This document shows, piece by piece, positions 17,437 to 59,095 of a stretch of DNA of 64,000 nucleotides (position 1 is the stretch's first letter; every line of letters starts with the position of its first letter). Below the pieces are notes generated by a model. That model had not been told where the DNA came from. It saw only the letters and a program-made list of their open reading frames with translations, and ran no database searches. A program made the position numbers and the translations under genes. The DNA is from Alphaproteobacteria bacterium (GTDB taxonomy: Bacteria > Pseudomonadota > Alphaproteobacteria > UBA9219): positions 996 through 64,995 of the forward strand of contig JAQUHK010000002.1 in NCBI GenBank assembly GCA_028683655.1, given 5' to 3'.

Positions 17437-17443
17437 GACACAA

Positions 17444-35428: not shown

Positions 35429-35902
35429 TTACAGGTTATTAAATATGGGGTATCCACATCTAAGACAGTTTTCCAAGCCCAGTGCGCTGTTGTAATGGAC
35501 GCCACCGCCCCATCCACACTGTGGGCAAAATTCATCTATCTCAGTATCAAGCCACTCCCATGGACCTATATATTCTGGAACAGCATCGTTATCGCAGCCA
35601 AGAAACTCTCCTACATTTGCTTGAACGCAGATAAAAGATGACGTGCTTTCAGTCTTCAACTCATCCAGTACGTTCCATGGCTCAATGGAAAACCATTCGC
35701 CATTAAGCCTGTATTTTTCATACTTTTTGTGAAGTTGCTTTTCATGCGACTGGTCAGCAGTTTCAACCCAACCCATTATTGCAAGTTTTCTAGAATTTCC
35801 TGTCTGGAGTTGTATAATTCTGTCATTTGGAGCACGACTAAACCCAATCTTGATTCTAGAATTATCACTGTCCTCATTTTCGATAATAAAATATGTACAC
35901 AT
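35429..35902 (-). CDS. T5orf172 (GIY-YIG-like) domain protein with C-terminal zinc ribbon
   Basis: RIKIGFSRAPNDRIIQLQTGNSRKLAIMGW...HEKQLHKKYEKYRLNGEWFSI; CPQCGW...CLRCGYP. Confidence 0.55.
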   Translation of the reverse strand: MCTYFIIENEDSDNSRIKIGFSRAPNDRIIQLQTGNSRKLAIMGWVETADQSHEKQLHKKYEKYRLNGEWFSIEPWNVLDELKTESTSSFICVQANVGEFLGCDNDAVPEYIGPWEWLDTEIDEFCPQCGWGGGVHYNSALGLENCLRCGYPIFNNL

Positions 35903-35952
35903 ATAAAGCCCAATCTTGCTATAGCCATAAAAGGTTACTTACAAAAAAAACA

Positions 35953-36198
35953 TTAAGACTCTGGCCCTTCCTCATCAGAGAAAAAGTCAGCGACTTCAGT
36001 ATTTATATGCTCAACCATTGAGATAATGCTCTCCTTCTCTGTATCAGTAAATTTACCCTCCAACTCAGGCTCATCTAGCCTTCTTGTATTGATCAGATCT
36101 TTGATCATGTCGGTATAACTAAATGCTGTCTTTTCACCAGCAACCAGTTTATGAACCGATATTTCTAACTCTTCATTTTTGCTAAATACCAATTTCAT
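35953..36198 (-). CDS. Small acidic hypothetical protein (81 aa)
   Basis: ORF overlaps the downstream gene start by 4 nt (operon-like). Confidence 0.35.
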   Translation of the reverse strand: MKLVFSKNEELEISVHKLVAGEKTAFSYTDMIKDLINTRRLDEPELEGKFTDTEKESIISMVEHINTEVADFFSDEEGPES

Positions 36199-38522
36199 TC
36201 TTCACCTCGAAAGTCTTTGAGATTGTACTTCTTTACTCGCTTTTTAATTGATGATTTTCCTCCGTCTGCGACTTCGGCTACTAGGTCTACCACGCTCTTT
36301 CCACCAATACTGCCCTCTAGTGGATTTGAAGAGATAGTTATTTTATTATTATCATTAGTACACATCACTATGTTTTGGGCATCACCTAACATAGGTATTG
36401 TGGCGTTATGAGAAACAAGAATGATTTGTTTTTTTAATTTGCATTTCTTGATCGCTGAAAGTAGTCCTGCGTTAATATAGCTGGTGGCAAGGTTATCTTC
36501 TGGCTGATCAATTATTAAAGGCGCACAATCAGAATCCCATCCAAGCACCAAGTCTAGAATGACGGATGTCTTCCACCCAGCACTCAAATGATCAAAGTTT
36601 CTTCCGTCCTTTGTTATGATTTTGTAGGTTTTTTTATTCATTTCTGAAAACCTACGGTTCACATAGTTCTCGAACTCTTGATAACTAGTGATCTTAGGGT
36701 CTCTTCTCTTAAACCTGTCTTTAAACAAGGACTCTGGCGTTATTCCTTCAAATGAACCAATCTGTATATCTGCTCTAAGGGTTTCGTTTATTACCTCCAG
36801 AAAGCTGTTCTTAGATAACTCAAACTTATTCTCAATATGAAGTCTATGCCCCATGGAAACGATTGGTTTATTATCAATCGTTATTGAGAACTGAGATATT
36901 TTGTCCAGTGCTTCATAAAACTGTTTGTGGTATTTCAAATATTTTTCCATACTATCCAATAATTTTTGAAAGCTTTGCGTTCTCGATTTAACCTTTTGAT
37001 CTTCTTTCTCCTGAGCATTATCTAATTCTAACCTATGCTCCTCAATTACTTCTCTAACAGTTTTTTCAAGAAGAGAGTTATTGAACGCTTCAATTAATTC
37101 ATTATTTAGGGCCTCAACTAATTTAGTGTCGTGCGTTACGGTGGGATTGCTTGAGAGGATTCTATCTATTTCATCAAGAACTCTCTTGTGACGATCATAA
37201 TCTGCTTCTGAATAACCAATTAACTTCGACTCCCTATCATTTGGTAGAATAAACCGTATAGGATTATCATGAATTTCTTCTGTAACTATCAATCTAGATA
37301 AGGCGGGGATTTTGCTTAACGCTCCGTGCAATAATTCTATTTCTGTTATAGACTGAGCAAGGTCTGTTAGATTAGAGCTTAGGTCATGTAAGACATTTAC
37401 AATTTTTTGTCTTTCAACTTCATCGGGAGGGAAAACGCTTTTTAAAATTGAAATATTCTCAATAGTATTGTTGCGATCTCTGTGATCACAAACTTTCATA
37501 ATATAGTTCTGATTAAAATAATGTGGGTGTTGTCCTGATGGATTTTTAACCTCTATATCTTTTATGTTGTAAGGAGTTCTAATGTAATCACTCTCTTCAA
37601 TTTTATTCACAATTTTACGATACAAAGAATCAACAAATAATGATTTTCCACTAGAAGAACCGCCGATCACAACATTTAATCCAGGTGTCAGCTTTACGTC
37701 TATGTCAATATTTTCATTTTTGAGTGAGACCGATTCAATACATTCAACCCAAGCATCTGGTTTTTTATCATATACCAACCTAGATGATTCAGAGAGCGAC
37801 AACCTAAGACCACTGAATGTTGGAGATGCGAGCATCCATGTTGGGACAAAATTTGATGCCTCTTGACCTGCTTTACAATCAGGATAGGTTTCGGGCGTGT
37901 AATTGTCTGAGGCAGTGATTAGGTTTACAAACTCCTTTATGCCTAGACGCTCAAAATAGTTATGCGTTCTTTCTAAACCACTAGTTCCTCTCGCTGTAAA
38001 TCCATCAAAATGATTGTAATAGATATTTCTTTCCATGGTTTTGTCGAACTCGACCCCATTTGGTATCGATTTATCAAATGTAGAGTGGTTTTGTCCTCCA
38101 TGCGGAAGCAGTAAAAACTCATAATTATCGAAACAATTCATTATTGCTTCTAAACTTGGAACATCATCATCATTGGTAACAGTTTTTTTAGGATACAGAC
38201 TGTCTAGTTTTTTATTAACGTCATCAATAATTGTTTCGTTGATTTTTTCAGCGTTAAAAATCATATGACAATGATAAGGCCTGCATTCTGTATAGTTTCT
38301 TATATGTAGTTCTACACCGAGAAGGATATTGTCAACAGATTGAACAGCTTCCAAATATACCTTTTTGTTGATAAAGTTATGATCCGTTATGGAGATTAAG
38401 TATGGCTGTTCCTCTGCAATTTTTTCTATGCCTGCTATTAGCGCCTCCAAATCATAATTCTCATTAGGGCAGTCAGGATTCTCTGAAGTGTGGATATGAA
38501 CATCGATGAATACTGGTTGCAT
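36195..38522 (-). CDS. PHP-domain phosphoesterase fused to ABC/SMC-like ATPase (Ppl-like candidate anti-phage protein)
   Basis: N-term FIDVHIHTS and ISITDHN (PHP His motifs); Walker A GGSSSGKS; Walker B PLIIDQPEDNL. Confidence 0.6.
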   Translation of the reverse strand: MQPVFIDVHIHTSENPDCPNENYDLEALIAGIEKIAEEQPYLISITDHNFINKKVYLEAVQSVDNILLGVELHIRNYTECRPYHCHMIFNAEKINETIIDDVNKKLDSLYPKKTVTNDDDVPSLEAIMNCFDNYEFLLLPHGGQNHSTFDKSIPNGVEFDKTMERNIYYNHFDGFTARGTSGLERTHNYFERLGIKEFVNLITASDNYTPETYPDCKAGQEASNFVPTWMLASPTFSGLRLSLSESSRLVYDKKPDAWVECIESVSLKNENIDIDVKLTPGLNVVIGGSSSGKSLFVDSLYRKIVNKIEESDYIRTPYNIKDIEVKNPSGQHPHYFNQNYIMKVCDHRDRNNTIENISILKSVFPPDEVERQKIVNVLHDLSSNLTDLAQSITEIELLHGALSKIPALSRLIVTEEIHDNPIRFILPNDRESKLIGYSEADYDRHKRVLDEIDRILSSNPTVTHDTKLVEALNNELIEAFNNSLLEKTVREVIEEHRLELDNAQEKEDQKVKSRTQSFQKLLDSMEKYLKYHKQFYEALDKISQFSITIDNKPIVSMGHRLHIENKFELSKNSFLEVINETLRADIQIGSFEGITPESLFKDRFKRRDPKITSYQEFENYVNRRFSEMNKKTYKIITKDGRNFDHLSAGWKTSVILDLVLGWDSDCAPLIIDQPEDNLATSYINAGLLSAIKKCKLKKQIILVSHNATIPMLGDAQNIVMCTNDNNKITISSNPLEGSIGGKSVVDLVAEVADGGKSSIKKRVKKYNLKDFRGEE

Positions 38523-39097: not shown

Positions 39098-41377
39098 TTA
39101 ACTAGCTTTAACAATACGCAATGTTCGTTTAGTAAAACCAGTCAGCTCTGTAGCATCAATGGATTCTGGTATTGTATCTGTCACGTTTTCACCATGGTGA
39201 TATTGCTTAGTATAATCGTTTATCTGATCCAACTCATCGTAAAGACCGGCAGCTGGGTGGATATCTCCACCTGCACGAATTTTTCCGACAATGTCACCAA
39301 GCCAATCTGAGTCCACGAATTGCACCGGATACGTGGTGCGCATATAGGTTTCCAAAACAGTCCGCATTTTACGGATGATGTCGATATGCTGACCTGCACC
39401 AGACGTTATAAACGCTTGTAGGTCATCTGTATCGGTTGCGGTGCGACCCTGACAGGCTTTTTCTAAGTCATGCGGCAGAATTTTGACGCCTTGCTTCTTG
39501 TTATCCGCCAGAATGATGGAGGCCCTATCAGAGGGTTGGCATTTATCCCAAAGCTGTTTGAGGAATGTCGGGTCGTGCGATAGCACAATCACCTGTGCAC
39601 ATAGACGGCCAACCTTGATGATCTCGTGGATGGTCTGCCTGCGACGGAAAGCATCCTGGCTGTTAAAGGGATCATCAAAAATGATAATTTTCCGTGCAAG
39701 CCCTGGGTCGCGTTCCAGATGCGCTAAGAAAAAGGCCAGAGCCAGCGTCGAGCGATCGCCTGCGCTCAAGGTGTTTTTGAAACTCGGTGTATTCGAAGGG
39801 GTGTTGCCGTTGCCGATGTCGATTTTCGTTCCGTTGATACCGAGTTGATAGGTTGATGTGGCGGAACCGCCTAAATAGCTGTGCTTCGTCTCTGCAATTG
39901 AAAAATCAGCATTAAAAGCTTCTAGAAATTCATTGATCCGCGCCTGATAGGGAGCGATGACTGTCTGTGTGTGGTTGTTAAGTTGATTCCTGATAACTTT
40001 CTTTTGAGTTTCAATATCGGCTTGCTCTGTTACTAGCTTTTTATATGCGACACAAAGAGGAACGACGGCGGCACTGAAGCGGGACTTGTTGAGCTTCAGC
40101 CTATTTAATTCTGCTGTGGTTGCAGGCAAGTCAGCCGTTCCAGCGGCGGTTTTTTGGTTTGAGACAAGAACGTTGGCGGCATCAACGGCCTTATTAAATG
40201 ATGAGATTTTGGATTTCATCACCTCATAGGTGGCAAGCGCCTGTAAAAATGTCTGATCGGTTTCAATAGCCTCCAACGGGGCATGTGCTTTCTTGTCTAT
40301 CAGTGCAGTAGCGGCTGTGCGCAGATCTGTGATTGCTTGTGCTAAATCGGGATGAATCTGCAATTCGTGCTGATCTAGAGCACAATATTTAGCCCAGTAC
40401 TCAATTGCGGCCCCGTGGTTTGCGTTGAAGGTTTCCAACTTAGCAAGAGCCGTATCGCCCATATTTAGCTCGATGCTATCCTTCGCTGCTTTGATGTCAC
40501 GGCGCAGTGTTTTGTACCTCTCGCTGAAGACGGATTTATAGGCCGCGATCAATGGAATATCCTTTGTGCCCTGACCGCAGAATGGGCAGGACTCTCCCGC
40601 ATGGTCGATCTGTTGCACGGCCCAACTCACGCCGTCTTTGGTTGTCATACCATGGGTGGTAAAATGAGTTTTAATCTGCTGTTCCGCATCCGTAGCGATA
40701 TCGTCGATTGTCCTGGCCAGAAGGTCGATGAAGCTGGTCGGCAATTCAGGAACGATGACTTTAGACAGTGGATTGCGTGCCTTGATGGCGGCAGATTCCT
40801 TTACGGCACTAAGCGTTTTCTCCTGTGCAGCAATTTTATGGTCAATATCGTCAATCTGCTGAAGAGAAAGGAAATCGTCTAGCTTCATGTTGCCTATATG
40901 CGGCTTTATGGCATTTGCCGCATTTTTCACTTCCGTCGTTTTCTTGCGGCCATCTTCGGCAAGGGCCTTTTCCTTCTCGGCCAAAGCAACACCAGCATCG
41001 CCAATAATTACACGATACAAGTTTCGCTTCTGGTCGCTGTCGACTACATCGCCGGAATGGACGTTCTGGGCTACAAAGGCACTATCAAAAATGGCAAGTT
41101 CCGGCCTAGCCGCATCCCAGGATGTTCCATTGAACGTTACAAGGCCGCTGCTGGTCAGAAGCTCGACAGAGGCAGCGTCAGTCACGCCCAAGGTCTTGCG
41201 TCCGATTACATGGGCAGGGTCATTCTCCTTCACCGAGCGGAGAATGGCGCAGATTGTGGTCTTACCGTGCCCGTTTGCTCCAAAAATAAAGCTGTGCTTA
41301 GCCAGCGAAGTATCGCCGACGCCAGCAGAATTGCGGAAGCGCCCCACATTCTTGATACCGACAATCTTTTTCAGCAT
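39098..41377 (-). CDS. Rad50/SMC-like AAA ATPase with central CxxC zinc-hook; RloC-like putative anticodon nuclease / abortive-infection ATPase
   Basis: Walker A GANGHGKTT; long coiled-coil; central CPFCGQG; Walker B IIIFDDPFNSQD. Confidence 0.5.
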   Translation of the reverse strand: MLKKIVGIKNVGRFRNSAGVGDTSLAKHSFIFGANGHGKTTICAILRSVKENDPAHVIGRKTLGVTDAASVELLTSSGLVTFNGTSWDAARPELAIFDSAFVAQNVHSGDVVDSDQKRNLYRVIIGDAGVALAEKEKALAEDGRKKTTEVKNAANAIKPHIGNMKLDDFLSLQQIDDIDHKIAAQEKTLSAVKESAAIKARNPLSKVIVPELPTSFIDLLARTIDDIATDAEQQIKTHFTTHGMTTKDGVSWAVQQIDHAGESCPFCGQGTKDIPLIAAYKSVFSERYKTLRRDIKAAKDSIELNMGDTALAKLETFNANHGAAIEYWAKYCALDQHELQIHPDLAQAITDLRTAATALIDKKAHAPLEAIETDQTFLQALATYEVMKSKISSFNKAVDAANVLVSNQKTAAGTADLPATTAELNRLKLNKSRFSAAVVPLCVAYKKLVTEQADIETQKKVIRNQLNNHTQTVIAPYQARINEFLEAFNADFSIAETKHSYLGGSATSTYQLGINGTKIDIGNGNTPSNTPSFKNTLSAGDRSTLALAFFLAHLERDPGLARKIIIFDDPFNSQDAFRRRQTIHEIIKVGRLCAQVIVLSHDPTFLKQLWDKCQPSDRASIILADNKKQGVKILPHDLEKACQGRTATDTDDLQAFITSGAGQHIDIIRKMRTVLETYMRTTYPVQFVDSDWLGDIVGKIRAGGDIHPAAGLYDELDQINDYTKQYHHGENVTDTIPESIDATELTGFTKRTLRIVKAS

Positions 41378-41397
41378 TACGCCTCCTTTGCTTTCTC

Positions 41398-44300
41398 CTA
41401 CGCCACCGCTTTCACCCCAATCACATCCATCAGCTTGCCGTAGCTGTCGACTACGTCGTACTTAACCTTGTCCTTTTCGATCTTCACGTTGATCTTATCG
41501 AAGAATTTGCGGGCGCATTCGATCTTCTTCTTCTCGATCTCGCGCAACTCCATGGACGACATGCTGCCCTTCGTTTCGGCGACGAAGTAGATATATTTGA
41601 CCTTACCCTCGGTAAAGGAGATGGCCCAATCGGGGTTATAGTCGCCCACAGGCGTAGGTATCAGGAAGCCACGCGGCAGCTTTGCATAGACGACAACCTC
41701 GGTGCTGGTGTCCAGTTCGCGCACAAAAGCGCGCTCGTTTTTGGAATCCGTGATAACGTAGTCGTAAATATGCTTCTTAAGCTTCTCGCTGGCCTTCGTG
41801 AAGTCCTGACGATTTTGTCCTGCGGTAAAGATGCTGGTGTCATAAGTTCCCGCTACTTCATCATAGGCAAGCTTCTCGACGATAATGGTAGCCTTCTGCT
41901 CATTGATCAGACGCGAGGCTTCGGCGATAAACTGTTCGGGGTTCTGTTTGAACTGCTCGAAAACAACCTTTTCTATGCCGCCCAGGATATCTGCCAGTGT
42001 TTTGCGGGTCAGGTGAACATTCTCGGCGATTTTGCCCAGCAGATCATATTTGACCGATGAAGCGATGGAAGCGTTTAATACGCCCGTTTCTGTATTCTTG
42101 AGCGTAAAGCCTTCGCCATCAGCAAGCTGAGCGTCGGTGATTTGGTCGCCCTGAATGCCGGCATGGATGGTGTATTGAAGAGGCGAGACTTTAAGCTCGC
42201 TGTTCAAGGTTGAAACGCATTTGCCGACAAGCTCGGTTGAGTCGAAATCAACACGATAGACAGCGCGCTTGTTGATCCGCGCCCACAATTCCTGAAACTC
42301 TTTCTTGTTGAAATTGTCGTTGAGTGGGTTCGGCTTGGGCTTTCGGTCGTCTCCAGGTTGGGGCAACTGGGATTCACTAAACACGCTGTCGATCAGGGCG
42401 ATAATGCCTGCCTCATGTGGTTTCAGATCGTCAGGAAGAGCCGCAAGCGTGCCGTCAGCCTTGGCCTTATGATAGGCTTCAGTGATCTTGTCATCCGTGT
42501 CCGTATAGTCGTTTTTGACAAGCCAGCGTTCGATTTGCTTCGCTAACGCCGCCGTGATCTCTAATGTACCGCCGTCTGCGGTCGGAATAATCTTGCCCGT
42601 AAAGTACTCTTCGTTGGCCTGGCGCGGGCGGGCAGAAAGAGAGTCGCTGATTTCTCGCTGAAGGTTGCCGACGAAGTCTTTGTAGCTCTCGCTTGCGACG
42701 ACAGTAAGAATGTTGATCTCATGCACCGTGGCGGGGTGATCCATGCGTTCACCGTTCTGGTTGACGGAGAGACGTAGGCCGCGACCCACTTCCTGACGGC
42801 GTGAGATAGTGTTATCGCTGTGCTTGAGCATGCACATGATAAAGACATTAGGGTTGTCCCAACCTTCGCGCAGGGCAGAGTGGGAGAAGATGAACCGCAC
42901 GGGCTCATCAAAAGAAAGAAGCCGTTCTTTGTCTTTCAGGATTAAATCATAGGCATCAACGTCATTGGACAACCCTGCGTTATCTCCACGAGCCTCAACA
43001 TCAGGGTCTTTGAGGTGTTTGGTTTTCTTGTCGATAGAAAAATATCCGGCATGGGTCGATGATGCGTCGATGCCCTCAAGATGCTTGCGCCAGTCGTGAT
43101 CATCCAACGCCAGTGTGCCCAGATATTCCTGCTTCGCGTTTTCGTATTCTTCTTCGAAAATTCGGGCATATTCGCCTTTTTCGTCATCGCGGCCATAGTC
43201 GCGGTACTTCACCACTTCATCGATGAAGAACAGTGACAAGACCTTGATCCCCTGCGTGAACAGTGCAGCTTCTTTTTCAAGGTGCGCTTTGATTGTTTCA
43301 CGGATTTGAATGCGGCGAATGGCGGCCTCGGTTACGTCGCCCGTGGCATCGCCCACCGTCAGAACTTCGCCGTTGGTAAATTCAACGGTATCTTGCGTGT
43401 AGTCGATCTGCGAGACTACGAAGCCCTTGTACTGGTCAAGGCTGCCTGAGAGGTCGTAAAGGTTGTCGCCCTTGTTCAAGCGTTTGACGACTCGTTTGAT
43501 CCCGCCAGTCTGCTTGATTTCCATCTCTACCTTAGCGACAGGCGGGGCGTTCTTCGAGATTTGAATGGATTCCAGATATAGGTAGGCATTCGTTCCCGCC
43601 AACCCTCTAACGGTCAGACCACGCACGGCGATCTTCTTGACTAGCTTTTGGTTATAGGCGTCCAGAGCGTCCAAGCGATGCACCTTATTATGCTCAACCT
43701 TATGAGTAGCCGAATAGCGTAGGATCATAAGCGGCTTGAACTTTGGCAGGGCATCCATTGTTGCCTTGCCGCCCATCTTTTGCGGTTCGTCAAGGATCAG
43801 GATCGGGCGATTGCTGGCAATAACATCAATGGGCTTGCGCGACTGAAAGTCGTCCAATTCATCATAAATACGTCTGTTATCTGCTCCCTTTGCATTAAAC
43901 GCCTGAATGTTGATGATCATGACATTAATGCCCGCATCGGAAGAGAAGCTCTCCAGATGATGTAGCTGCTTGGAATTATAGATAAAGAACCGCACTTTCT
44001 TGCCGTAGGCTTCCGTGAAGTGATCGGCGGTGATTTCAAATGATTTATAGACCCCTTCGCGGATAGCGATGCTGGGAACCATGACGATAAACTTGTTCCA
44101 ACCATATCGCTTGTTCATTTCGAAGATGGTTTTGATATAGCAGTAGGTTTTGCCCGTACCTGTTTCCATCTCCATGTCGAGATTGATTTTACATCCAGCA
44201 CTGACCGCAAGATGGTCGGACAAAGGCAGGTTCTGGCGTTTCTGCACGGCATGAATGTTCTGGATCAGCTGCGTTTCGGTCAAGCGAAGGTCGGCGTTTC

Positions 44301-44466
44301 TAAACCCTTCATATTCGGACTCTGGCCGGTAATGCTCACCTTTCTTTATGATACCGGGGTCAATGCGATAGGACGCGCCCGTCACAAGGGGCTGCCCCGC
44401 AAAGCAATCCACCACGGATTCCACGGCATTGGTCTGATAGGGCTGGACTTTAAATTTGAGCTTCAT
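41398..44466 (-). CDS. res: Type III restriction enzyme Res subunit (SF2 helicase plus C-terminal PD-ExK nuclease)
   Basis: [16 protein letters not shown]-box-like; C-terminal [10 protein letters not shown] endonuclease motif; N-term [11 protein letters not shown]. Confidence 0.8.
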
Positions 44467-44485
44467 GTTTGACTATCCAGTGGGT

Positions 44486-45535
44486 TCATAGTTTCCAACG
44501 TCTTTTGGGCGGCTTCTGTTTGCACAAGTCGAGCAATTCAGAGAAGCGACTTGGATCTATGGCTTGCCGCACTATCTCAAAAATAAATTTTTGTGGTTTT
44601 CTTGTTTTTTGGAAAACAAGAACGCATGGGCGGCTTCTATATTCAAGTTCGCTGATAGTAAGACGAGCTGTAGAGTTTTTGTTATGAGTAAATGTTAGTG
44701 ATCGCTGTTCTTTCGTAGCCATGTTTTCTAGTGTCAGCTCAATAGAACTTCCGACCTCGCCACCTAATCCAAAAAACCTTTGTGCGGCGTCCAACGGAAT
44801 TTGAATCTGACGACCCTCATTACTGGTTTCCCTAGGCATAACCTCCAGAATCATTTCTCCGCTACTGACCTTCGCGGTTCGCGGACCACGGCTAGTGGAC
44901 GACTTGGTTTTCTTTTTGCCACTGGTTCGCATTGACCATGTAAATGTTCCACCTTGAGAAATTTTTGCCCTTTTTTCGCCGTGTTTTTCCTTTTCAGTCC
45001 TGTAACTCTTTAGTAACTGGGGAGTGGCCAGCTCGCTAGCCTTATGAATTTCTTCATGCCAGCGCAGGAGATTGGCATCAGCCTTGGTAATTTTTGTGAC
45101 AGAAGCGAACTCGATGTTGTTCGCTAATCCGTCTTCTGTCAGGTTGTTGCTTCCGGACAGAATAGTGATGCTTGTTCCCCCCGAAAACCAGATGACTTTA
45201 GGATGGAATGTACCTGTGTAGTGGCGCATGAGACGAACTTCCATTCCGTCTCCCTGCATGGCTGCTATCGCATCAGCATCGGTAAGTGCGTGGTCGGTTC
45301 CGATATATGCTGTGACGGAACGATTTGAGGATTTACTCCAGCTCAATATGCTGCTGCGGAGCCGTCTCCATCCTGCGACAGTTACAGCGTAAAAATACAA
45401 TCTCAGTTGGGTCGAACTTGTTTCCGTACGACACAGGTTGATAGCCGCATCAAGAAAATCGGTAACGGCCCACGCCGCAGTTCTCATGGTAGGAGCTGGG
45501 CTTGTTAGGTCTACGGATTTGCGCCTAGCAATCAT
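44486..45535 (-). CDS. Phospholipase D-family nuclease (HKD motif)
   Basis: FHPKVIWFSGGTSITILSGSNNLT matches HxK(x)4D(x)6GSxN. Confidence 0.65.
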   Translation of the reverse strand: MIARRKSVDLTSPAPTMRTAAWAVTDFLDAAINLCRTETSSTQLRLYFYAVTVAGWRRLRSSILSWSKSSNRSVTAYIGTDHALTDADAIAAMQGDGMEVRLMRHYTGTFHPKVIWFSGGTSITILSGSNNLTEDGLANNIEFASVTKITKADANLLRWHEEIHKASELATPQLLKSYRTEKEKHGEKRAKISQGGTFTWSMRTSGKKKTKSSTSRGPRTAKVSSGEMILEVMPRETSNEGRQIQIPLDAAQRFFGLGGEVGSSIELTLENMATKEQRSLTFTHNKNSTARLTISELEYRSRPCVLVFQKTRKPQKFIFEIVRQAIDPSRFSELLDLCKQKPPKRRWKL

Positions 45536-47463
45536 ATGACTTTGACCTCTGTGACTGGGGAAATCTGCTTGAAGATTTGATCAACATTAATCTTCACTGC
45601 ATCGTTGGCAAAGCCGTTATCGCGGAAAACCACCCTCAGCGGCTTACGCGCGGCCAGTTCTTTCACAAAGTCTTCAGAAATGTCTGTATCAAAACAGGCG
45701 GCTAGCGCATTGCTGTCCACGAAATAGACTTGCTTGTTCAAAAGGGTTTCTCGCTCAATAGGGGCTGTTAGAAGGTGCGCACTTCCCCAATCAACAATTA
45801 CCTGAAAAAGCAAGTCTTCCGGTGTGCGGTCGGTTTTAACATAGCCTGTTGCGGCAACAAGCAAATTGTCCTGGTTCCAATCGTCTGGGACTCGCTTGTA
45901 AAAAGCATCATCCATGTTGGAAGTTGCGATTTTCAACACACGAAATCCGACATCTCCATTGAATAGTGGATTATCTTCTTGGATCTTCTTCCCAGCACGG
46001 CGGATGCGTTCTTTGGAAATTTCAGCAATGGTTTTGTAGCCCGCCTTGTATGCCTCAGATTTTGGATCACATTCTTCTGGCAGTTGGATCATAATGAACG
46101 TACGATTACCCCCATCCTCAGCATTAAGCCTCAGGACTGCATGAGCAGTGGTAGATGATCCTGCAAAAAAATCGACTACTATGGCATCTGGCGCATCGTA
46201 AGTAACAGCCTTGCAAAGAACGTGAATTAGGCTGGATGGCTTTGGATTATCAAATAACACTGCCCCAAACAGGCTTTCCAATTCTGAAGTTCCGTCTTCG
46301 TTCGTTCCTGATTGATATGTTTCTGGGCTAAGAAGGTTATGCATTTTCTTTACATCACCTCCCGCCTTAATGTGATTTGGACGAAATGGTGCTTTTGATA
46401 TTGTTATGGCCTCTCCTGCACGAATAATCTCATCGAGATAAGTCTGACTGTATCTAAATTCTCCTTCCAAACGAAAGGCATCGACGTTCAAATTGTCGAG
46501 CACATCGACCTTATCTAGTAAGCGCGTAATGATATTCCCCTCGCTCATGTCTTGAGGCTCATAAGAGGCCAATTTCTCAGAAAATCTAACTGATCTCGAC
46601 GGGAACGTAAGAACACCTATTGAATTGCCAGCATTATTAAGTGGGTACTTCTTTCCAGCTGTTGTGACGTCGACTGAGAATGGAGGTGCAAAGGCTCTAT
46701 TTTTGGCTACACAAACAACGTACTCAAACATAGAGCCGACATTCGAATGTAAAAAAGATGGTTTCTTTTTTCGTTGGCGAATAAACGTGGTTACAAAATT
46801 TTCTTCTCCAAATACTTCCTTGCACAATTTTAGCAAATTATCTATTTCATGCTCACCAATGCTGATAAAAACAACCCCATCATCTGACAATAAGTTTCTT
46901 GCAAGCCTTAATCTTGGATAAATAAATGACAACCAGTCAGAGTGGAATCTTCCATTGGTTTCCGAATTGGCCACCAACGGAATTCCATCTGAAGTTTTCT
47001 GGTTGCTTCGAACTTTGAATGTTTCCACATCCTCCGCAAAATCATCCTCATAGATAAAATCGTTTCCCGTATTATACGGCGGGTCGATATAGATCATCTT
47101 GATCTTGCCGAGATAGGTTTCCTGCAAGAGCTTCAAGGCTTCGAGGTTATCGCCCTCGATGAACAAGTTTTTGGTGGTGTCGAAATTGACGCTTTCGTCA
47201 CGCGCGGGGCGCAGGGTTTTGGCGATGGGTGCGTTGGCGGTGAGCAAAGCTTCGCGCTTGCCCGGCCAATTGAGATGATAGCGTTCCTGCGGCCCTTCCA
47301 CGATCTGGCCGGAGAGTTCCTGTTTCAGCAGGTCAAAATCCACCGCCAGCTTAATCGCACCTTGCGCGTCTTTCGCCTCGGTCACGCAATTCGGGAACAT
47401 CTCACGGATCCGGGCGATATGATCCTGCGTCAGGTCGTGGGTGTGCATTTTCAGTTTTTCCAT
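45532..47463 (-). CDS. mod: Type III-like N6-adenine DNA methyltransferase (Mod; beta-class)
   Basis: IYIDPPYNTGNDFIYEDDF (DPPY) precedes DFFAGSSTTAHA (FxGxG). Confidence 0.85.
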   Translation of the reverse strand: MEKLKMHTHDLTQDHIARIREMFPNCVTEAKDAQGAIKLAVDFDLLKQELSGQIVEGPQERYHLNWPGKREALLTANAPIAKTLRPARDESVNFDTTKNLFIEGDNLEALKLLQETYLGKIKMIYIDPPYNTGNDFIYEDDFAEDVETFKVRSNQKTSDGIPLVANSETNGRFHSDWLSFIYPRLRLARNLLSDDGVVFISIGEHEIDNLLKLCKEVFGEENFVTTFIRQRKKKPSFLHSNVGSMFEYVVCVAKNRAFAPPFSVDVTTAGKKYPLNNAGNSIGVLTFPSRSVRFSEKLASYEPQDMSEGNIITRLLDKVDVLDNLNVDAFRLEGEFRYSQTYLDEIIRAGEAITISKAPFRPNHIKAGGDVKKMHNLLSPETYQSGTNEDGTSELESLFGAVLFDNPKPSSLIHVLCKAVTYDAPDAIVVDFFAGSSTTAHAVLRLNAEDGGNRTFIMIQLPEECDPKSEAYKAGYKTIAEISKERIRRAGKKIQEDNPLFNGDVGFRVLKIATSNMDDAFYKRVPDDWNQDNLLVAATGYVKTDRTPEDLLFQVIVDWGSAHLLTAPIERETLLNKQVYFVDSNALAACFDTDISEDFVKELAARKPLRVVFRDNGFANDAVKINVDQIFKQISPVTEVKVI

Positions 47464-47467
47464 TGGT

Positions 47468-48157
47468 TCATTCGCTCCTTGATGTCTTGCCGGTCAAATC
47501 CGCGATCTCTTGCTGTATCGTGCGGATATTGGCATTGATTTCAACCTTGCGGTTAAACTGTTTCTCGCGGCCCAGTCGCGCTTCGGCTTTTGTGACTTCC
47601 TTCTGTCGCGCGCGGATGGCATCCACCCGCACGATATGATCGGATAGGCTTTCACCCTGTATCGCGGGATGCGGGATAATCGCCCGCAACAATTCGGCAT
47701 ACAGAGCCGCCAGATCAAGTGTGATGGGCAGAGCTGTGCGCTTTGCCTCTGCCGCAAGCCACGGCGTTTCAAAATAGCTGCTCAAGACCCACTTCGTGCT
47801 ATCGGCCTCATTCGGTCGTTTATAGCACGCCACGGCCTTGACCTTGCTGTCATAGGCCAGCTCAAACAGGATGGGAAACGGGATGGCCTTGTCGATACAG
47901 CGAAGAACGTCTTCCTTCAGCTCTCCCGTCTTGAGGGCGATGGTGAAAACCTGAATTTCCGGTACGGCCTTGGTGGCTTTGATGTTGATCGTCTCCGGTG
48001 CCAGTTTATACGCCCAGGCGATTTGATCCACCTGATCCACAAACAGCTTTTTCATTGCTGTGCTGGGGCCAGCATATTGGTAGATTTTTGTTTTAGGCAG
48101 GATGCGTCCAAAGGCGGCTTTCTGCGGATAGGCGAAGAGCGTCATGCGGTTATTCAT
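47468..48157 (-). CDS. Hypothetical protein linking the SNF2 helicase and Mod (229 aa)
   Basis: Short gaps to both neighbours; no motif recognised. Confidence 0.45.
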   Translation of the reverse strand: MNNRMTLFAYPQKAAFGRILPKTKIYQYAGPSTAMKKLFVDQVDQIAWAYKLAPETINIKATKAVPEIQVFTIALKTGELKEDVLRCIDKAIPFPILFELAYDSKVKAVACYKRPNEADSTKWVLSSYFETPWLAAEAKRTALPITLDLAALYAELLRAIIPHPAIQGESLSDHIVRVDAIRARQKEVTKAEARLGREKQFNRKVEINANIRTIQQEIADLTGKTSRSE

Positions 48158-51100
48158 TTTTCTTGGCCCTCCTGAATAACCAGAAAGGCGATCAGCTCAA
48201 AATCATCAAGGCCTGAGATGGCATTCACAAGTGCCGTAGTCTTGCCACCGCTGAATAGGCTGTCGAGGTCTTTTTCTTCCTTGACCTCAATCATCGAGCG
48301 GATGGCCGCACCTAGAAGGTCAGAATACGGCTTCATGTTTCGCCCGTCGTCGGTTTCGCTGTTAAACAAGCGACAGACGGTGGCGATTGGTTCGTCATAC
48401 CCTTTGCTGCTGGTGCGCACAAGGTCGAGCAACTTTTTGGCCTCGGTATGGTTGGCAATGATTTCGCCATCCTTGGCAATATAAATCAGATAATACGGAT
48501 GCAGGCGGTTTTGCTGGTTGATATTCACGCCGTTGTTGCGGTTGCGCAGTGCAAAAATGACGCCGGGCTTCAGACCAAGATCAGGCTCGGCAGAAACAAC
48601 GGCATGCATGCCCTTGGGCGCATCTTCCAGATCGCCATGCTGTTTTACGTAGTTGATCAAATCCATGCGGAAATCGTTGAGGCCAAGGTCTGTGATGGAA
48701 ACGCCTGTTTTTAAATCTTCTAACTCGATCACTTCTTCCTGCAAGCGGCGGAGCTGTTCCTTGCGGTAAGCAACTTCGCTGCTTTTGGCTGTCAAAACGT
48801 TATCGTCGCCCGTGGCTGTTACATCGGCGATGATCATGCGATTTTCAACGCGCTCTTTCAGATTGATATATTCGTCGAGCGAGATATCGGGCCAGTAATT
48901 GACAAGCTGGATGCTGGCGTTGGGGGAGCCGATACGGTCGATACGTCCGAAACGCTGGATAATGCGCACGGGGTTCCAGTGAATGTCGTAGTTGATCAGA
49001 TAGTCGCAATCCTGAAGGTTCTGGCCTTCGGAAATACAGTCTGTGCCGATCAGGATATCCAGTTCGCCCATTTCGTCGGGCATCACCAGAGTTTTTTCTT
49101 TTGATCGTGGAGAGAAGAGGGTGAGGACGGACTGATAATCATATCCTGTGCCGAGCGTTGATTTAGGCGCGCCTTGCCCCGTTACCACGGCGACGTTGAT
49201 GTCGGTTTGGATGCCTGCAATGTTTTTGTAGAGATACTGGGCTGTGTCGGCAAACGCCGTGAAGATCAAAACTTTCTTATTGCCGCCATTAATGGGGTTC
49301 GCGATCTTGCCGACGATCCGCGTTTTAAGGTCTTGGAGCTTGGCATCGTCTTCCGGTGTGATCTTGCGCATGGATTCCAGAAGCGTGTGAATTAGCTGCA
49401 AGTCGCCGTTTAGGTCGTCCTTCCAACGCGGGACATCCATGTCGGAGAGGCTGATCTTGACCTTGCCGCTGACGCTGTTACCATCGTCAAGCTCGTCGAT
49501 ATTGTCCTCGTCTCCCTCTAGACGGTCTTCTACGTCTTCAGTAAAGTCTGAGACGCCGATATCTTGTCCTGCCTCAAACTTAGCGATGGTGGTCAGTGTG
49601 TTTGTGAGCTTACCTTCCAGCGTTTCCAGCGTCAGGCGGAAGGATTCTACCGAGCTTTCCAGCCGCTTGAGCAGGTTGGTCGTCATCAACGCTTTGAGCG
49701 CGATTTCACGGTCTGCTTGTTTCAGTTTTCCACCACCACCAGATACTTCTGTATCATAAATGTCTTCATATTTTTTAAGGCGACTGGGTAGAATGTAGCT
49801 GATTGGCGCATATACTGCGAGTTTCAGTAAGGAAAGTTGGCCAAAAATATCGTTGAAACCCATCACATCGGTGCGCTGGGTCAATGGGCAATGGATGGAG
49901 ATGGGTTTCCGGCGTTCTGGGAACTTGCCAATATCCTTTGTGTCGTAGAACGTCTCGATATGCTTGCGCGAACGAGCGATGGTCACGCTGTCCAACACCT
50001 CGAAGAAATCGAAGTCAAGCTTGTCGAGAATGGCGCGGGCCGTGCGTTGTTCAGGCGGCAATTCCGACCAGGCGTTGAAAGCCGATTGCGCACGGCGGAA
50101 TATTTCCTCGATACTCCGCTTGGTTTTCAATTTTTCGTTGAGGGTGTCGGACTCACCCTCATAGGCCAGAGCTAGTTGATTTTTAAGGTCGTTGAAGCGA
50201 TTATTGACAGGGGTCGCCGAAAGCATCAGTACCTTGGTTTTAACACCCTCGCGGATGACCTTGTTCATTAGCTTCTGGTAGCGCGTCTCGCGCTCTTTGA
50301 AAACTTCATTGTTGCGGAAGTTATGGGACTCGTCGATGACAACCAGATCATAGTTGCCCCAATTCACGCGGTCGAGGCGCATGCCGAAGGATTCTCCCGA
50401 CGTGCGCGATAGGTCGGTATGGCACAGCACATCATAACCAAAGCGATCCTGCGCGAAGATATTGGTCTTGAGGTTCTTATTGTAGTTGAGCCAGTTATCG
50501 GCCAGCTTTTTCGGGCACAGCACCAGCACGGACTTATTCCGAAGCTCGTAATATTTGACGACCGCAAGGGCCGTAAATGTTTTACCCAAGCCTACACTGT
50601 CAGCAAGGATGCATCCGTTATAGGTTTCCAGTTTGTTGATGATGCCGACGGCGGCATCACGCTGGTAATTGAACAACTTTTTCCAGACTAGGCTTTCCTG
50701 ATAACCCGTGCGGTCGTTCGGTAGAACATCCTCGTTAATGTCTTCGAGGAACTCATTGAAAATGTTGTAGAGCATCTGGAAATAAATGCGCTCCGGCGCA
50801 TTCTCCTGATACACCGACTCGATGTGGTCGCAAATAGCACTAGTAACATCCTCCAACTTGGCGGGGTCGTTCCAAATCCTATTGAAAAGCTGGAGATATG
50901 TCGCGGTGTGTGCGCTGTCGCCGAAACGGTTGACAATATTGGAGACAGCATCACCTGGCTGATAACCCAAGTCCACGGCGGTAAAGCCATGCAGGGGCGC
51001 ATATGCTGTTTGCTGCTCATCATCTGCAATGCAGATAAACTGCTGCATCTGGGCCTTTGTTCGGTTTGAACGAAAGGTTGCCTTGTCTCGTATCCACTCC

Positions 51101-51426
51101 GCGCATTCCCTAGCTATCGCCCGTTGGGTCAGCTTGTTACGAAGCTGAATTTCAAACTCGGAGCCGTACAGGCTACTTTCACGGTTCGCCTTGGGAATAA
51201 AGAACTCGCGTCGTTCCTTGCGAACCTTATCCGTGACTTCGTTGGTAACAAACGTTGGGGCGGTGAAAATGAATTCTAGGGACTCGACCTTGGACAATTC
51301 AGCCTTCAACGCCTCGTAAGCATAAATCGAAAAACATGACGCCGCGATCTTTACCCTGGACTTCGGTGAAAGCGATGTCTTTAGGTCGTCGCCAAGTAGA
51401 GCATTTATGTTGTCGATTATTTTCAT
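48154..51426 (-). CDS. SNF2-family helicase (1090 aa)
   Basis: ILADSVGLGKTFTALAVV (motif I); VVIDESHNFRN (DExH); C-terminal helicase domain with QRFGRIDRIGS. Confidence 0.85.
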   Translation of the reverse strand: MKIIDNINALLGDDLKTSLSPKSRVKIAASCFSIYAYEALKAELSKVESLEFIFTAPTFVTNEVTDKVRKERREFFIPKANRESSLYGSEFEIQLRNKLTQRAIARECAEWIRDKATFRSNRTKAQMQQFICIADDEQQTAYAPLHGFTAVDLGYQPGDAVSNIVNRFGDSAHTATYLQLFNRIWNDPAKLEDVTSAICDHIESVYQENAPERIYFQMLYNIFNEFLEDINEDVLPNDRTGYQESLVWKKLFNYQRDAAVGIINKLETYNGCILADSVGLGKTFTALAVVKYYELRNKSVLVLCPKKLADNWLNYNKNLKTNIFAQDRFGYDVLCHTDLSRTSGESFGMRLDRVNWGNYDLVVIDESHNFRNNEVFKERETRYQKLMNKVIREGVKTKVLMLSATPVNNRFNDLKNQLALAYEGESDTLNEKLKTKRSIEEIFRRAQSAFNAWSELPPEQRTARAILDKLDFDFFEVLDSVTIARSRKHIETFYDTKDIGKFPERRKPISIHCPLTQRTDVMGFNDIFGQLSLLKLAVYAPISYILPSRLKKYEDIYDTEVSGGGGKLKQADREIALKALMTTNLLKRLESSVESFRLTLETLEGKLTNTLTTIAKFEAGQDIGVSDFTEDVEDRLEGDEDNIDELDDGNSVSGKVKISLSDMDVPRWKDDLNGDLQLIHTLLESMRKITPEDDAKLQDLKTRIVGKIANPINGGNKKVLIFTAFADTAQYLYKNIAGIQTDINVAVVTGQGAPKSTLGTGYDYQSVLTLFSPRSKEKTLVMPDEMGELDILIGTDCISEGQNLQDCDYLINYDIHWNPVRIIQRFGRIDRIGSPNASIQLVNYWPDISLDEYINLKERVENRMIIADVTATGDDNVLTAKSSEVAYRKEQLRRLQEEVIELEDLKTGVSITDLGLNDFRMDLINYVKQHGDLEDAPKGMHAVVSAEPDLGLKPGVIFALRNRNNGVNINQQNRLHPYYLIYIAKDGEIIANHTEAKKLLDLVRTSSKGYDEPIATVCRLFNSETDDGRNMKPYSDLLGAAIRSMIEVKEEKDLDSLFSGGKTTALVNAISGLDDFELIAFLVIQEGQEK

Positions 51427-51599
51427 GTGCGCTTTTCTTTTTCTTTAATCCACCGATCAATCTCGGTTTTACGAAAACGCCACGATCCACCTACCTTAAA
51501 TCCTGGAATCTCTCCCTCAGCGACAAGACTGTAGACGGTCTTTTCTGCCAATTTGAGCATTTCCGCTACTTCACGAACGGTAAGGATGTCGTCTTTCAT
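51423..51599 (-). CDS. AlpA/excisionase-family small HTH protein (58 aa) heading the SNF2 operon
   Basis: MKDDILTVREVAEMLKLAEKTVYSLVAEGEIPGFKVGGSWRFRKTEIDRWI. Stop overlaps the SNF2 ATG (ATGA). Below the ORF-track cutoff. Confidence 0.5.
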   Translation of the reverse strand: MKDDILTVREVAEMLKLAEKTVYSLVAEGEIPGFKVGGSWRFRKTEIDRWIKEKEKRT

Positions 51600-51799
51600 A
51601 GGTGTTATTGCCCGCTGCTGATTCTTTTTCTACAGCAGAAAATACGGCAAAATTCTCCAATCACAAAGCTAAAAGAGCCCAATAGTGCTGGTTTGCCAAT
51701 TAAACCATCGCAATATCGTTCATTCCTAATAAAATGGCAGCTATAGGGGTATCAATGGTAAGGCCACAATGCTAACACTGGGGCATTTTATAAACCCGC

Positions 51800-52201
51800 T
51801 TAGTCCATCAATGGAAACAAACACCTAGCATACTTCAGCACCTCGCCCACACGTTGCAGTGTCAATTCAGCATCGGCCTTGGATATGTCGTTAGGGAGGC
51901 TCCAGTCGTGGGCTTCACGCAGGACTTTGACGTCTCCTACGATGCCCCAAGCTTCCTTCATTGCATCGGACGTTGTTCTGGCATTCCAGATATGGGTTGC
52001 GAACTTCTCAAAGATTTCATCTGACGGGGTGGCAGGCTCATTGTCGAGCTGGGTCATGTAACTGGCCGCTATGGTATCCGATGCTTGCAAAGCCAGCTTT
52101 TCACTTTCGGCATATTGACCTGTTTCAAGCGCGGATTGTGCCAGCCGGAGCTGTTCCGTTGCTTGATCGAATAGGGTTTGGCTGTGTGAGTTCATCATCA
52201 T
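51800..52201 (-). CDS. Conserved backbone hypothetical protein (133 aa), paralog of 27406..27861
   Basis: See the paralog. Confidence 0.5.
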   Translation of the reverse strand: MMMNSHSQTLFDQATEQLRLAQSALETGQYAESEKLALQASDTIAASYMTQLDNEPATPSDEIFEKFATHIWNARTTSDAMKEAWGIVGDVKVLREAHDWSLPNDISKADAELTLQRVGEVLKYARCLFPLMD

Positions 52202-53445
52202 GCCGTTAATGAGAAAATCGGGTTGTATCTGGCCGCGTCGGGCGCAATGAGCGTCAAGGGACGGTTGGGCGCATCATGCCGCTCGGCAGCTTTGCGAAGA
52301 TCAAGGGATGCCGTTTGCATAGGCCTGCCGCCTAGCTCGCGCTGTTCTGCCCCCAAGGATTTAAGCGCGGCAACAATCTCTGGTTCCTGTAAAACATGAA
52401 TATGTATTGGTGGTGGCACAATGCCCAGCAAAGGGCTGGATCGCCTTGGCGACAACAAAACGATGTTCTGCGCCTTGAACAAAGCCGCATAAACATCCTG
52501 TAAACTCCCGCCGAGAGGAACAGCAGGGCTGGCCTCTTGCCGAGGCTTAGCGAGACTCCCCCAACCACGCTCACCGATCTCTTGCTCTGCCGCTTTCAGG
52601 ATGGAGGCTGCAACACATCGCAACACACCCGAATTGGGCATTTGGCCATTGCTCATAAACTGGCATTGCGTCACAGGCGTTCCCTTGAAGGTCGAAATGC
52701 CTTTGGTAAAGCTGGCCACCACTTTTTGCCGAGAGTCCGGACTTTCCCAACTCACGACAAAGTTATTGGGATCAATCGTGCCATCTGCACGCAGAACATA
52801 GCGAACCTCTACGGGTAGCTTGAATAGACCAGCAGGAAGGCGGCCACTGGCAATTTTCAGCAACGCACTGTCTTCACCGCGCCCAAGGGTCGCACCCAGA
52901 CTTTCCTGAACAGCGATAATCTTGCTGTTATAGGGAGCAAACTCGAAAGCTTGTCCCACAGGGATGATGCCATCCTTGAATCCATGCGTTGCGTAATAAT
53001 CTATGCTGGCTTGAATAAAGGGCAAGCCCAATCCGTTTCTTGGAAGAGACTTGGTTCGTGGCCTTTCAAGAATGATCTCGCGCATCTTTGCGGGAAGCAA
53101 AGCCACATCCTCGCTGTAGATGCCGTGATGAACATCTATGTCATTCCCGTTTCTTTGCAAGAAGAGTGACCGAAAGTTTATAGCCGCGCCAACAATTTTC
53201 GGATCACAAACATCCCACGCGGCAGCGAAGAACAAAACTTCCACATCATCGGTGGACATAGCCCTCATAACTTGGCGAAAGCCTACGGGATCGAATGCCG
53301 CGCCATGCACCTTGGCTTCGTACTGGATGGCATCGCGCAGCATACCGCCAAGCGTGCTGCAATGAATGACATCCGAGTCAATTTGCGGGAGAATGGCGAC
53401 GTTAAGGCCGCCCATGAGCTGCTGAAAGTTTTTTGTATCAATCAT
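52198..53445 (-). CDS. Conserved backbone hypothetical protein (about 415 aa), paralog of 27858..29090
   Basis: MIDTKNFQQLMGGLNVAILPQ start, same as the paralog. Confidence 0.55.
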   Translation of the reverse strand: MIDTKNFQQLMGGLNVAILPQIDSDVIHCSTLGGMLRDAIQYEAKVHGAAFDPVGFRQVMRAMSTDDVEVLFFAAAWDVCDPKIVGAAINFRSLFLQRNGNDIDVHHGIYSEDVALLPAKMREIILERPRTKSLPRNGLGLPFIQASIDYYATHGFKDGIIPVGQAFEFAPYNSKIIAVQESLGATLGRGEDSALLKIASGRLPAGLFKLPVEVRYVLRADGTIDPNNFVVSWESPDSRQKVVASFTKGISTFKGTPVTQCQFMSNGQMPNSGVLRCVAASILKAAEQEIGERGWGSLAKPRQEASPAVPLGGSLQDVYAALFKAQNIVLLSPRRSSPLLGIVPPPIHIHVLQEPEIVAALKSLGAEQRELGGRPMQTASLDLRKAAERHDAPNRPLTLIAPDAARYNPIFSLTA

Positions 53446-53522
53446 TGTTGCGACACCCATAATTTGAGGAGCCAAACTAATCCGAGCGTATCACAAAATC
53501 CTCTACCTGTACTGGGGGCTTA

Positions 53523-55102: not shown

Positions 55103-55189
55103 GCTTAGATCAGATCGTGAAAAGGTTGGCGGCTACGCCTGCCAACCATTCGCGTGAATCTGATCGATAATCAAAGAAAGGAGGCCCCT

Positions 55190-55774
55190 ATGTCCTCAGA
55201 CACAAGCAACCGCCCGCCCATCACCCCTCTGTTCCGCCACACAGCCCGCGCCGTGTGTCGCCCATTGAGTCTGTACGACAGCCTTAAAAATCCAGCCCCG
55301 CCGCAAAGAGGCGAGACGCAGGAACGGTCAGACATTTTGTCTGACAAAAAAGCTAAAAGCTTCGCGCAAGTTGCGCCTTCGGTCAGACCACCAGTGGTCA
55401 GACCAAAGCCATGCGAGCTAAAGCTCGGAAGAGAAAGGCCTCATCGTCTGATGGCACGTTTCAATGACGATGAAAAAGCTTTAGTTCAACGCAAAGCCAA
55501 AACAGCCCGTCTGTCTTTAAGCGAATATATCCGCGTCTCTGTTCTGGGGGATGTCTATGTCTCGACCGTTGATCCGGAGCGGCAAAAGCTCCTGCACGAG
55601 CTGAGCCGCGAGCTTGGCAAGCAGGGAAGCAATCTTAACCAGATCGCCAAACACCTCAACACACGCGGGGAGTCCCAGCAAGGCGAAGGCATGCTGGCGG
55701 AACTCTTTGACTCGCTGGTCGCCGCTCACAACGCCGTGCGCCGCGCCATGGCAGAAAGGAAGCGTTATGAATGA
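55190..55774 (+). CDS. mobC: MobC-family mobilization protein (island B)
   Basis: RLSLSEYIRVSVLG; NLNQIAKHLN. aaggagg RBS. Confidence 0.8.
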   Translation: MSSDTSNRPPITPLFRHTARAVCRPLSLYDSLKNPAPPQRGETQERSDILSDKKAKSFAQVAPSVRPPVVRPKPCELKLGRERPHRLMARFNDDEKALVQRKAKTARLSLSEYIRVSVLGDVYVSTVDPERQKLLHELSRELGKQGSNLNQIAKHLNTRGESQQGEGMLAELFDSLVAAHNAVRRAMAERKRYE

Positions 55775-59030: not shown

Positions 59031-59095
59031 CTAACCCCTTGAAAAGCGTGGTGGGTGCGACAGGGATTGAACCTGTGACCCCTACCGTGTGAAGG
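59031..59095. repeat. Direct repeat copy 3 (overlaps the intact tRNA-Val 3' half)
   Basis: See the other repeat copies. Confidence 0.8.

Follow-up and report, generated by a model that had tools for sequence, protein, structure and literature searches.

We analysed a 64,000-nucleotide (nt) stretch of an alphaproteobacterial contig (JAQUHK010000002.1, positions 996 to 64,995; called the window hereafter), in which seven co-directional genes at positions 39098-51599 are tightly packed on the minus strand and include a Type III restriction-modification pair. An open reading frame (ORF) check confirmed the coordinates, the single strand and the short gaps or overlaps that had been given for these genes in an earlier interpretation made from the letters of the DNA (the sequence-only reading). 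The motifs quoted there, namely DPPY in the methyltransferase, DEPQ and PD-ExK in the helicase-nuclease, an HKD-type motif in a phospholipase D (PLD) protein and a CxxC hook in an ATPase, were all found in the translations. Overlaps of 4 nt are present at the HTH/SNF2, SNF2/DUF4391 and Mod/PLD junctions, and the remaining junctions are gaps of 4-20 nt. A run of PADLOC on the locus called the parts singly and did not name the cassette as a whole, and a megablast search of the locus against E. coli genomes returned no match.

The operon begins with a gene for a helix-turn-helix (HTH) DNA-binding protein of 58 amino acids (aa) of the excisionase/MerR-like type (51423..51599), which matched Pfam PF12728 (HTH_17) at 3.3e-19 and 69 bits. 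The earlier label of AlpA was not upheld, since the AlpA family scored 19.3, under its Pfam cutoff of 21. An orthologous HTH gene is found ahead of the SNF2 gene in many other loci that carry the cassette, and the protein is the presumed regulator of the operon. It is followed by genes for an SNF2-family ATPase (1090 aa; 48154..51426) with a degenerate PLD-like domain at its N-terminus, a DUF4391 protein (229 aa; 47468..48157) and a Type III Mod methyltransferase (643 aa; 45532..47463). Next in order are a PLD nuclease with a C-terminal B3-like domain (349 aa; 44486..45535), which is an optional component, a Type III Res protein consisting of a superfamily 2 (SF2) helicase and a PD-(D/E)xK endonuclease (1022 aa; 41398..44466), and a predicted RloC-type ATP-binding cassette (ABC) ATPase and anticodon nuclease (759 aa; 39098..41377).

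Assignment of the Type III pair was straightforward. Mod matched PADLOC MTase_III at 1e-211 and PF01555 (N6_N4_Mtase) at 1.2e-30, with the DPPY motif at residue 127, and Res matched PADLOC REase_III with an E-value of 0 and Pfam ResIII and RE_endonuc at 4e-33, with the motifs GTGKT, DEPQ (at 226) and PDW...ETK. In a comparison with the NCBIfam equivalog PRK15483, however, Res scored 374 bits and did not reach the cutoff of 564; judged by this score, it belongs to a divergent subfamily and is not the StyLTI/EcoP15I equivalog.

A sister locus (L036; Ga0302247_1000180, 6415-17950) was compared with positions 39098-51743 of the window. The two are 97% identical over HTH, SNF2, DUF4391 and the N-terminus of Mod, and 94% identical over Res and the ABC ATPase. 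In between, the central region of Mod (~46182-46834) is unrelated and the C-terminus of Mod is 74% identical, and the replaced central region is consistent with a different target-recognition domain. The sister locus does not contain the PLD gene, and only ~30 nt separate its mod and res genes; PLD is thus optional, because it is absent from an otherwise near-identical operon. The flanks of L036 are unrelated to those of the window, with the similarity ending at 51743 on one side and at the stop codon of the ATPase gene (39098) on the other, and these points therefore mark the boundaries of the unit. The conserved block reaches ~144 nt upstream of the HTH gene and so takes in a non-coding leader on the minus strand (51600..51743), the presumed promoter region, whose 97% nucleotide similarity to L036 and a further locus, L035, has its limit at 51743. 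A scan of the locus for promoters and terminators gave no convincing sigma-70 match, with scores no better than those of shuffled sequence.

We examined the neighbourhood of DUF4391 genes in 118 loci, drawn from samples of metagenomes (80 loci), viral contigs (37, of which 35 had a recognisable DUF4391) and four annotated plasmids. The SNF2 gene lay immediately upstream of DUF4391 in each of the 107 loci in which this could be assessed. For the genes downstream, we counted only loci with more than 9 kb of sequence 3' of DUF4391 (n=53); Mod was present in all 53, and Mod together with Res in 51. The fixed SNF2-DUF4391 adjacency, with Mod and Res downstream, therefore defines one conserved cassette, and the order SNF2-DUF4391-Mod-Res was still kept in viral-contig loci whose DUF4391 proteins were down to 22% identical. 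The same four genes were found on an E. coli IncFIB plasmid and on plasmids of Acinetobacter, Methylotuvimicrobium and the archaeon Methanomethylovorans, and the E. coli version was present in 10 of 5,426 complete genomes, mostly plasmid-borne. SNF2-DUF4391-Mod-Res is a conserved, widespread and unnamed four-gene form of Type III restriction-modification, usually placed behind a small HTH_17 regulator. The sequence-only reading would have been refuted if SNF2 and its 229-aa neighbour did not accompany Type III pairs elsewhere, and these counts (107/107 and 51/53) show decisively that they do. The seven genes are not a chance juxtaposition.

The SNF2 protein contains the Pfam domains SNF2-rel_dom and Helicase_C with the motifs GLGKT, DESH, SATP and QRFGR, gave PDB sequence matches to RapA and SMARCA5, and was matched along its full length (residues 2-1084) by the PADLOC model C3a139 'HKD+Snf2' (PDLC01075) at 6.7e-128. 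This label comes from the screen of genes near type III CRISPR loci by Shah et al. (2018). The N-terminal domain of the window protein is devoid of HxK and GSxN, reading 'MQQFICI...PLHGFTAVDLG' instead. Both motifs are missing in 82 of 97 family members, and HxK and GS are kept in only three of the 97. Intact HxK...GS at the N-terminus was seen in L139, L140 and L029 among the SNF2 relatives, and the cassette may descend from an SNF2 protein with an active PLD nuclease. Alignment of the N-terminus with the PLD profile (hhalign) was not significant, nor did this region yield a PDB sequence match.

The 229-aa protein, listed as unknown in the sequence-only reading, is indeed encoded but belongs to a recognisable family, DUF4391 (Pfam PF14335; 6.2e-62, 210 bits against a cutoff of 29.9). 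Its AlphaFold2 (AF2) model, with a pLDDT of 82.7, shows an alpha/beta domain followed by a C-terminal helical hairpin. Neither a PDB profile search nor Foldseek searches of PDB and BFVD recovered a relative, and when 21 diverse members (alignment A2) were scanned permissively with Pfam, PF14335 was returned in every case and no remote family. DUF4391 is a common family that comprises over 4,100 clusters at 90% identity. A literature search for DUF4391, PF14335, or SNF2 with Type III found incidental mentions only and no paper on the cassette.

The PLD protein carries HPK at residue 111 and GSNN at 128, and scored below the Pfam PLDc_2 cutoff (24.1 against 27). Its sequence is 100% identical to that of an annotated protein of an Alphaproteobacteria MAG. 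Among 30 aligned homologues, H111, K113, S129, N130 and N131 are invariant, and the C-terminal domain, with 17 invariant residues, is as conserved as the catalytic domain. Profile matches in PDB were to SauUSI (6e-5) and BfiI (4e-4). An AF2 model (pLDDT 83.8) placed seven strands and short helices at residues 227-336, and in Foldseek searches the best match was BfiI (2c1l, 2.4e-13 over 378 columns), followed by the PLD domain of SauUSI (6.7e-10) and R.NgoAVII (4rct, 1.6e-8 over 374 columns). The invariant HxK...SNN and the fold match secure the PLD assignment despite the sub-cutoff PLDc_2 score. The model indicates a BfiI/R.NgoAVII architecture of a PLD nuclease joined to a B3-like domain, the call for the latter being moderate and not firm.

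This PLD family is rare. We detected it in 24 loci among 185,579 genomes (one per species), and a profile search of 1.84 billion representative sequences returned 65 clusters at E<=1e-30. Neighbourhoods of the 24 loci, together with loci fetched for three PLD homologues, were inspected with probes taken from the window proteins. The loci fell into four architectures: SNF2-DUF4391-(insert)-Mod-PLD-Res in 12 loci (Proteobacteria, Planctomycetota, Verrucomicrobia, Saccharibacteria and others); Mod-PLD-Res alone in six; a DISARM/ARMADA-like arrangement in six, in which a large PglX/Eco57I-type methyltransferase adjoins PLD, several with an SNF2 ATPase; and an SNF2-PLD-Mod-Res-like arrangement in three. 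Two of the DISARM/ARMADA-like loci (L003 and L017) encode a YprA-type helicase, that of L003 with an MZB (formerly DUF1998) domain. In all four architectures PLD stands beside a methyltransferase in a helicase-containing, modification-based operon. When approached from DUF4391, however, PLD occupied the mod-res gap of just one (L122) of ~77 loci with Mod and Res.

We considered whether PLD substitutes for a dead nuclease in Res. The helicase and nuclease motifs of Res are intact in every PLD-bearing locus, which rules this out, and PLD is therefore an addition and not a replacement. The idea that the B3-like domain reads the target of Mod was likewise not supported, because the C-terminal domain does not co-vary with the central domain of Mod. 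Its divergence tracks that of the PLD N-terminal domain (r=0.95) and not that of the Mod central domain (r=0.63), and in L024 and L030 an unrelated Mod central domain (22% identity) is found with a PLD C-terminal domain that is 51-57% identical to those of loci with another class.

The last gene matched Pfam AAA_13 at 6.8e-32 and PADLOC PDC-S06 at 1.2e-67. RloC has been defined as a protein of 658-897 aa whose ABC ATPase is split by a CX2C zinc-hook insert and whose C-terminus contains Arg-X3-Glu-X36-52-His (PMC2610378). The 759-aa window protein has GANGHGKT, IIIFDD, C264PFC267 and R672-x3-E676-x51-H728, all of which are invariant in 27 homologues, and homologues carry the automated source name 'wobble nucleotide-excising tRNase'. 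The RloC-like label given to this gene in the sequence-only reading was thus correct, and the protein fits the published definition and is a predicted anticodon nuclease. Linkage of RloC and PrrC to restriction-modification loci has been described, with 8 of 72 RloC genes located at Type I or Type III loci (PMC2610378). Orthologues of the window protein (53-70% identity) were found in mobile contexts unrelated to the cassette, and two of these orthologues have other restriction-modification genes as neighbours.

The spacing of the core genes varies among loci. More than 700 nt separate DUF4391 from mod in 30 of 103 loci, and more than 400 nt separate mod from res in 19 of 77. These gaps and the site after res carry co-directional passengers, many of them unrelated defence genes, including Gabija-like AAA_15/TOPRIM, UvrD, SIR2 with HerA, AAA+ with a subtilase, Abi_2, GmrSD, DUF1016/YhcG, RhuM, AAA_21, a Schlafen-like protein, OLD-like genes and AAA_13 genes. 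Passengers enter between DUF4391 and mod and never replace the four core genes. The cassette has, in its gaps, hot spots for further defence genes, and these gaps could act as a bait site for new ones. Inserts of up to 6.4 kb were seen at the DUF4391-mod junction (L044, L049, L058, L066, L068, L078, L096, L100 and others), with Gabija-like, UvrD-like, SIR2-HerA and AAA+/subtilase genes, and in L109 (7137-9773) a gene for an 878-aa protein without a Pfam match. A 224-aa protein, also without a Pfam match, recurs in the mod-res gap of five loci (L116, L121 and three others), at the position of the PLD gene, and in seven loci res is followed by a gene for a recurrent Abi_C-like protein of 270 aa.

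Taken together, the block at 39098-51743 is probably one co-transcribed, horizontally moving defence cassette, made up of the four-gene core with PLD and RloC as optional additions. The linked multi-component system proposed in the sequence-only reading holds for SNF2-DUF4391-Mod-Res, which is conserved, but not for PLD, which is dispensable, or for RloC, whose orthologues are unlinked; and in place of a one-off hybrid, the core is a widespread four-gene cassette. That all seven proteins form a single obligate hybrid of Type III and DISARM-like parts is improbable in our view. The single strand, the overlapping or near-abutting genes and the inheritance of the whole block together with L036 fit such a machine, as does the presence of the PLD family in DISARM/ARMADA-like loci, and AAA_13 genes recur in or beside the cassette in L001, L077, L030, L031 and L036. 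However, L036 is the same operon minus PLD, PLD is present in one of ~77 DUF4391-anchored loci, and close orthologues of RloC lie in unrelated contexts; the AAA_13 genes of other cassettes are different members at different positions, which phmmer did not match to the window protein (1e-5 and 1e-6). A DUF1998/MZB protein is also missing, and the DrmD score is 142 bits against 610. More improbable still is an ordinary defence island in which SNF2-DUF4391 works as a system of its own and simply lies often beside Type III genes. Defence genes do cluster generally, the gaps hold Gabija-like, SIR2-HerA, GmrSD and Abi genes, and elsewhere in the window GmrSD and DarTG are embedded in a Type I operon. 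Against this stand the fixed order (107/107 and 51/53) across bacteria, archaea, plasmids and viral contigs, down to 22% identity, and the fact that inserted passengers never replace the four core genes.

A further explanation concerns PLD, which could be a self-contained, sequence-specific endonuclease like BfiI, with Mod serving for host protection only, so that a Type II-like pair would be nested in a Type III operon. In the structural search BfiI ranked first, with a full-length match, the start of the PLD gene overlaps the stop of mod by 4 nt, PLD is always beside a methyltransferase, and the difference from L036 takes in the central domain and C-terminus of Mod together with PLD as a single block. 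On the other hand, the C-terminal domain is conserved like the catalytic domain and follows the PLD N-terminal domain in its divergence and not the central domain of Mod, L024 and L030 combine an unrelated Mod central domain with an ordinary PLD C-terminal domain, and the same PLD family pairs with PglX-like methyltransferases of another class. In most loci, moreover, a helicase gene is next, as in the ATP-dependent NgoAVII and CglI. The absence of co-variation with Mod speaks against recognition of the Mod site by an enzyme like BfiI, and we regard this explanation as unlikely.

A bolder reading, which we hold to be less likely than not, is that the four core genes encode a separate, widespread class of ATP-dependent restriction system with four components, in which the chromatin-remodeller-type SNF2 motor and the new-fold DUF4391 protein would be integral to cleavage and PLD-B3 would be a portable effector. 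The mechanism that we think most likely for the cassette starts from what is established for Type III systems, where Mod modifies a single strand of a short, asymmetric host site. The Mod2Res complex binds unmethylated incoming sites, ATP triggers sliding, and the PD-(D/E)xK domain of Res cuts on collision, two unmethylated sites in inverse orientation being needed. The obligate linkage, the translational coupling and the analogy with the SNF2 and methyltransferase pairs of DISARM I, ARMADA and BREX suggest that SNF2-DUF4391 could be a second DNA-tracking module that acts with the Mod-Res complex; it could strip bound proteins, extend the damage, or gate restriction against methylation, with DUF4391 as a possible adaptor. 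PLD would add helicase-driven degradation of DNA, like R.NgoAVII and R.CglI, which need a DEAD helicase and ATP, and RloC may serve as a back-up, cleaving the anticodons of tRNA if restriction is blocked or the DNA suffers damage. The dependence of R.NgoAVII on its ATPase partner is documented (PMC4267654).

Several points weigh against the account of a four-gene core with optional additions. The metagenome sample is biased, since it favours DUF4391 proteins with 50% or more identity to the query and includes some near-duplicates, and percentages derived from it are no clean census. We infer the role of SNF2-DUF4391, and DUF4391 is a protein without a recognisable fold relative. The full-length TM-scores of PLD in Foldseek were only 0.31-0.32, with differing domain orientations. 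The gaps hold many unrelated defence genes, so that PLD could be a mere passenger and not a partner of Res or SNF2; and with orthologues of RloC elsewhere unlinked to the cassette, its functional coupling here is conjectural.

Type III enzymes have been treated as two-protein machines, to which the DUF4391 cassettes, thousands in number and ranging from E. coli plasmids to archaea, always add an SNF2 motor and DUF4391. Working out the role of this pair would fill a gap in restriction biology and may explain the pairs of SNF2 and methyltransferase in DISARM, ARMADA and BREX. If the four-component class is real, SNF2-DUF4391 might relax the two-site rule of Type III enzymes, process the cut DNA, or counter anti-restriction proteins, and PLD-B3 would be interchangeable between Type III and DISARM/ARMADA-type operons. 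Two near-identical natural operons, one having PLD and the other lacking it, along with copies on E. coli plasmids such as that at 3254-12300 of NZ_CP101235.1, make the question directly testable.

The remainder of the window contains further defence and mobility genes. A Type I-like restriction-modification operon on the plus strand (2367-12876; HsdM 2367-4688, HsdS 6784-8136, HsdR 9832-12876) has GmrSD (4685-6787), DarT (8133-8786) and macro-domain DarG (8774-9865) as passengers, a nesting like that of the Type III cassette. Just downstream of the cassette, on the minus strand, lies a low-GC (36%) block (35429-38522) not common to L036. One of its genes (36195-38522) codes for a TrlF-family AAA-like ATPase of 775 aa whose C-terminus is Ppl-like; the block also has an ORF of 81 aa and a gene for a T5orf172/MUG113 protein (35429-35902), and is probably a set of defence genes separate from the cassette. 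On the upstream side, adjoining the cassette but outside the block shared with L036, two overlapping ORFs of 133 and 425 aa (51800-53475, minus strand) gave no significant match in Pfam, PADLOC or NCBIfam. A tyrosine integrase (34112-35272), a NikA/MobC-like protein with a MobA/VirD2 relaxase (55154-56523) and a tRNA-Val gene (59049-59123) flank the region, which suggests that a mobilisable integrative element carries the defence genes.

Among known systems, the cassette is closest in its enzymes to classical Type III restriction-modification (EcoP15I, EcoP1I, StyLTI), with which it shares a DPPY N6_N4 Mod, an SF2 helicase Res with a C-terminal PD-(D/E)xK domain, and the order mod then res. 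The classical systems do not have SNF2 and DUF4391, which always precede mod in the cassette; in the window, in addition, Res is under the PRK15483 cutoff and a PLD gene lies between mod and res. Pairs of SNF2 and methyltransferase genes are a feature of BREX. They also recur in DISARM I and ARMADA (PMC12458937), and with DISARM class 1 and ARMADA the window shares an SNF2 ATPase, a site-specific methyltransferase and a helicase-nuclease. The resemblance to DISARM class 1 drawn in the sequence-only reading is real insofar as the PLD family adjoins the methyltransferase in DISARM/ARMADA-like loci, standing between methyltransferase and helicase in L003 and L017, but it does not extend to membership. 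DrmA and DrmB are absent, the methyltransferase is a Type III Mod and not PglX-like, and the window SNF2 scored 141.8 bits with DrmD (NF038317; cutoff 610), over the helicase core only; on these grounds DISARM was ruled out. The absence of a DUF1998 protein, already stated in that reading, was confirmed, with no MZB/DUF1998 match in any of the seven proteins. The window PLD matched PADLOC DrmC at 1.5e-4 and its family adjoins the methyltransferase in DISARM/ARMADA-like loci, so that it may be a DrmC relative, but DrmC is described with an N-terminal four-helix bundle, whereas the window PLD has a probable B3-like domain at its C-terminus instead.

NgoAVII and CglI, which consist of M, an R protein with PLD and B3 domains, and a DEAD helicase (H/N), have probably the same R-protein architecture and have the same order of methyltransferase, PLD and helicase as the window, but the B3-like domain of the window family does not track methyltransferase specificity. 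As for RloC and PrrC at restriction loci, the last gene fits the RloC definition and linkage to Type III has precedent, whereas orthologues of the window RloC are mostly unlinked to the cassette and its activity is predicted from sequence. The Hma system, to which a PADLOC match to HmaA had pointed, was ruled out, since Hma is built of DUF3883, DUF1156 and DUF499 proteins, unrelated to those of the cassette. The paper on Hma nevertheless describes like insertion behaviour, and the variable defence genes in the gaps of the cassette resemble the passengers embedded in other operons, such as PrrC in a Type Ic locus and the insertions in Hma.

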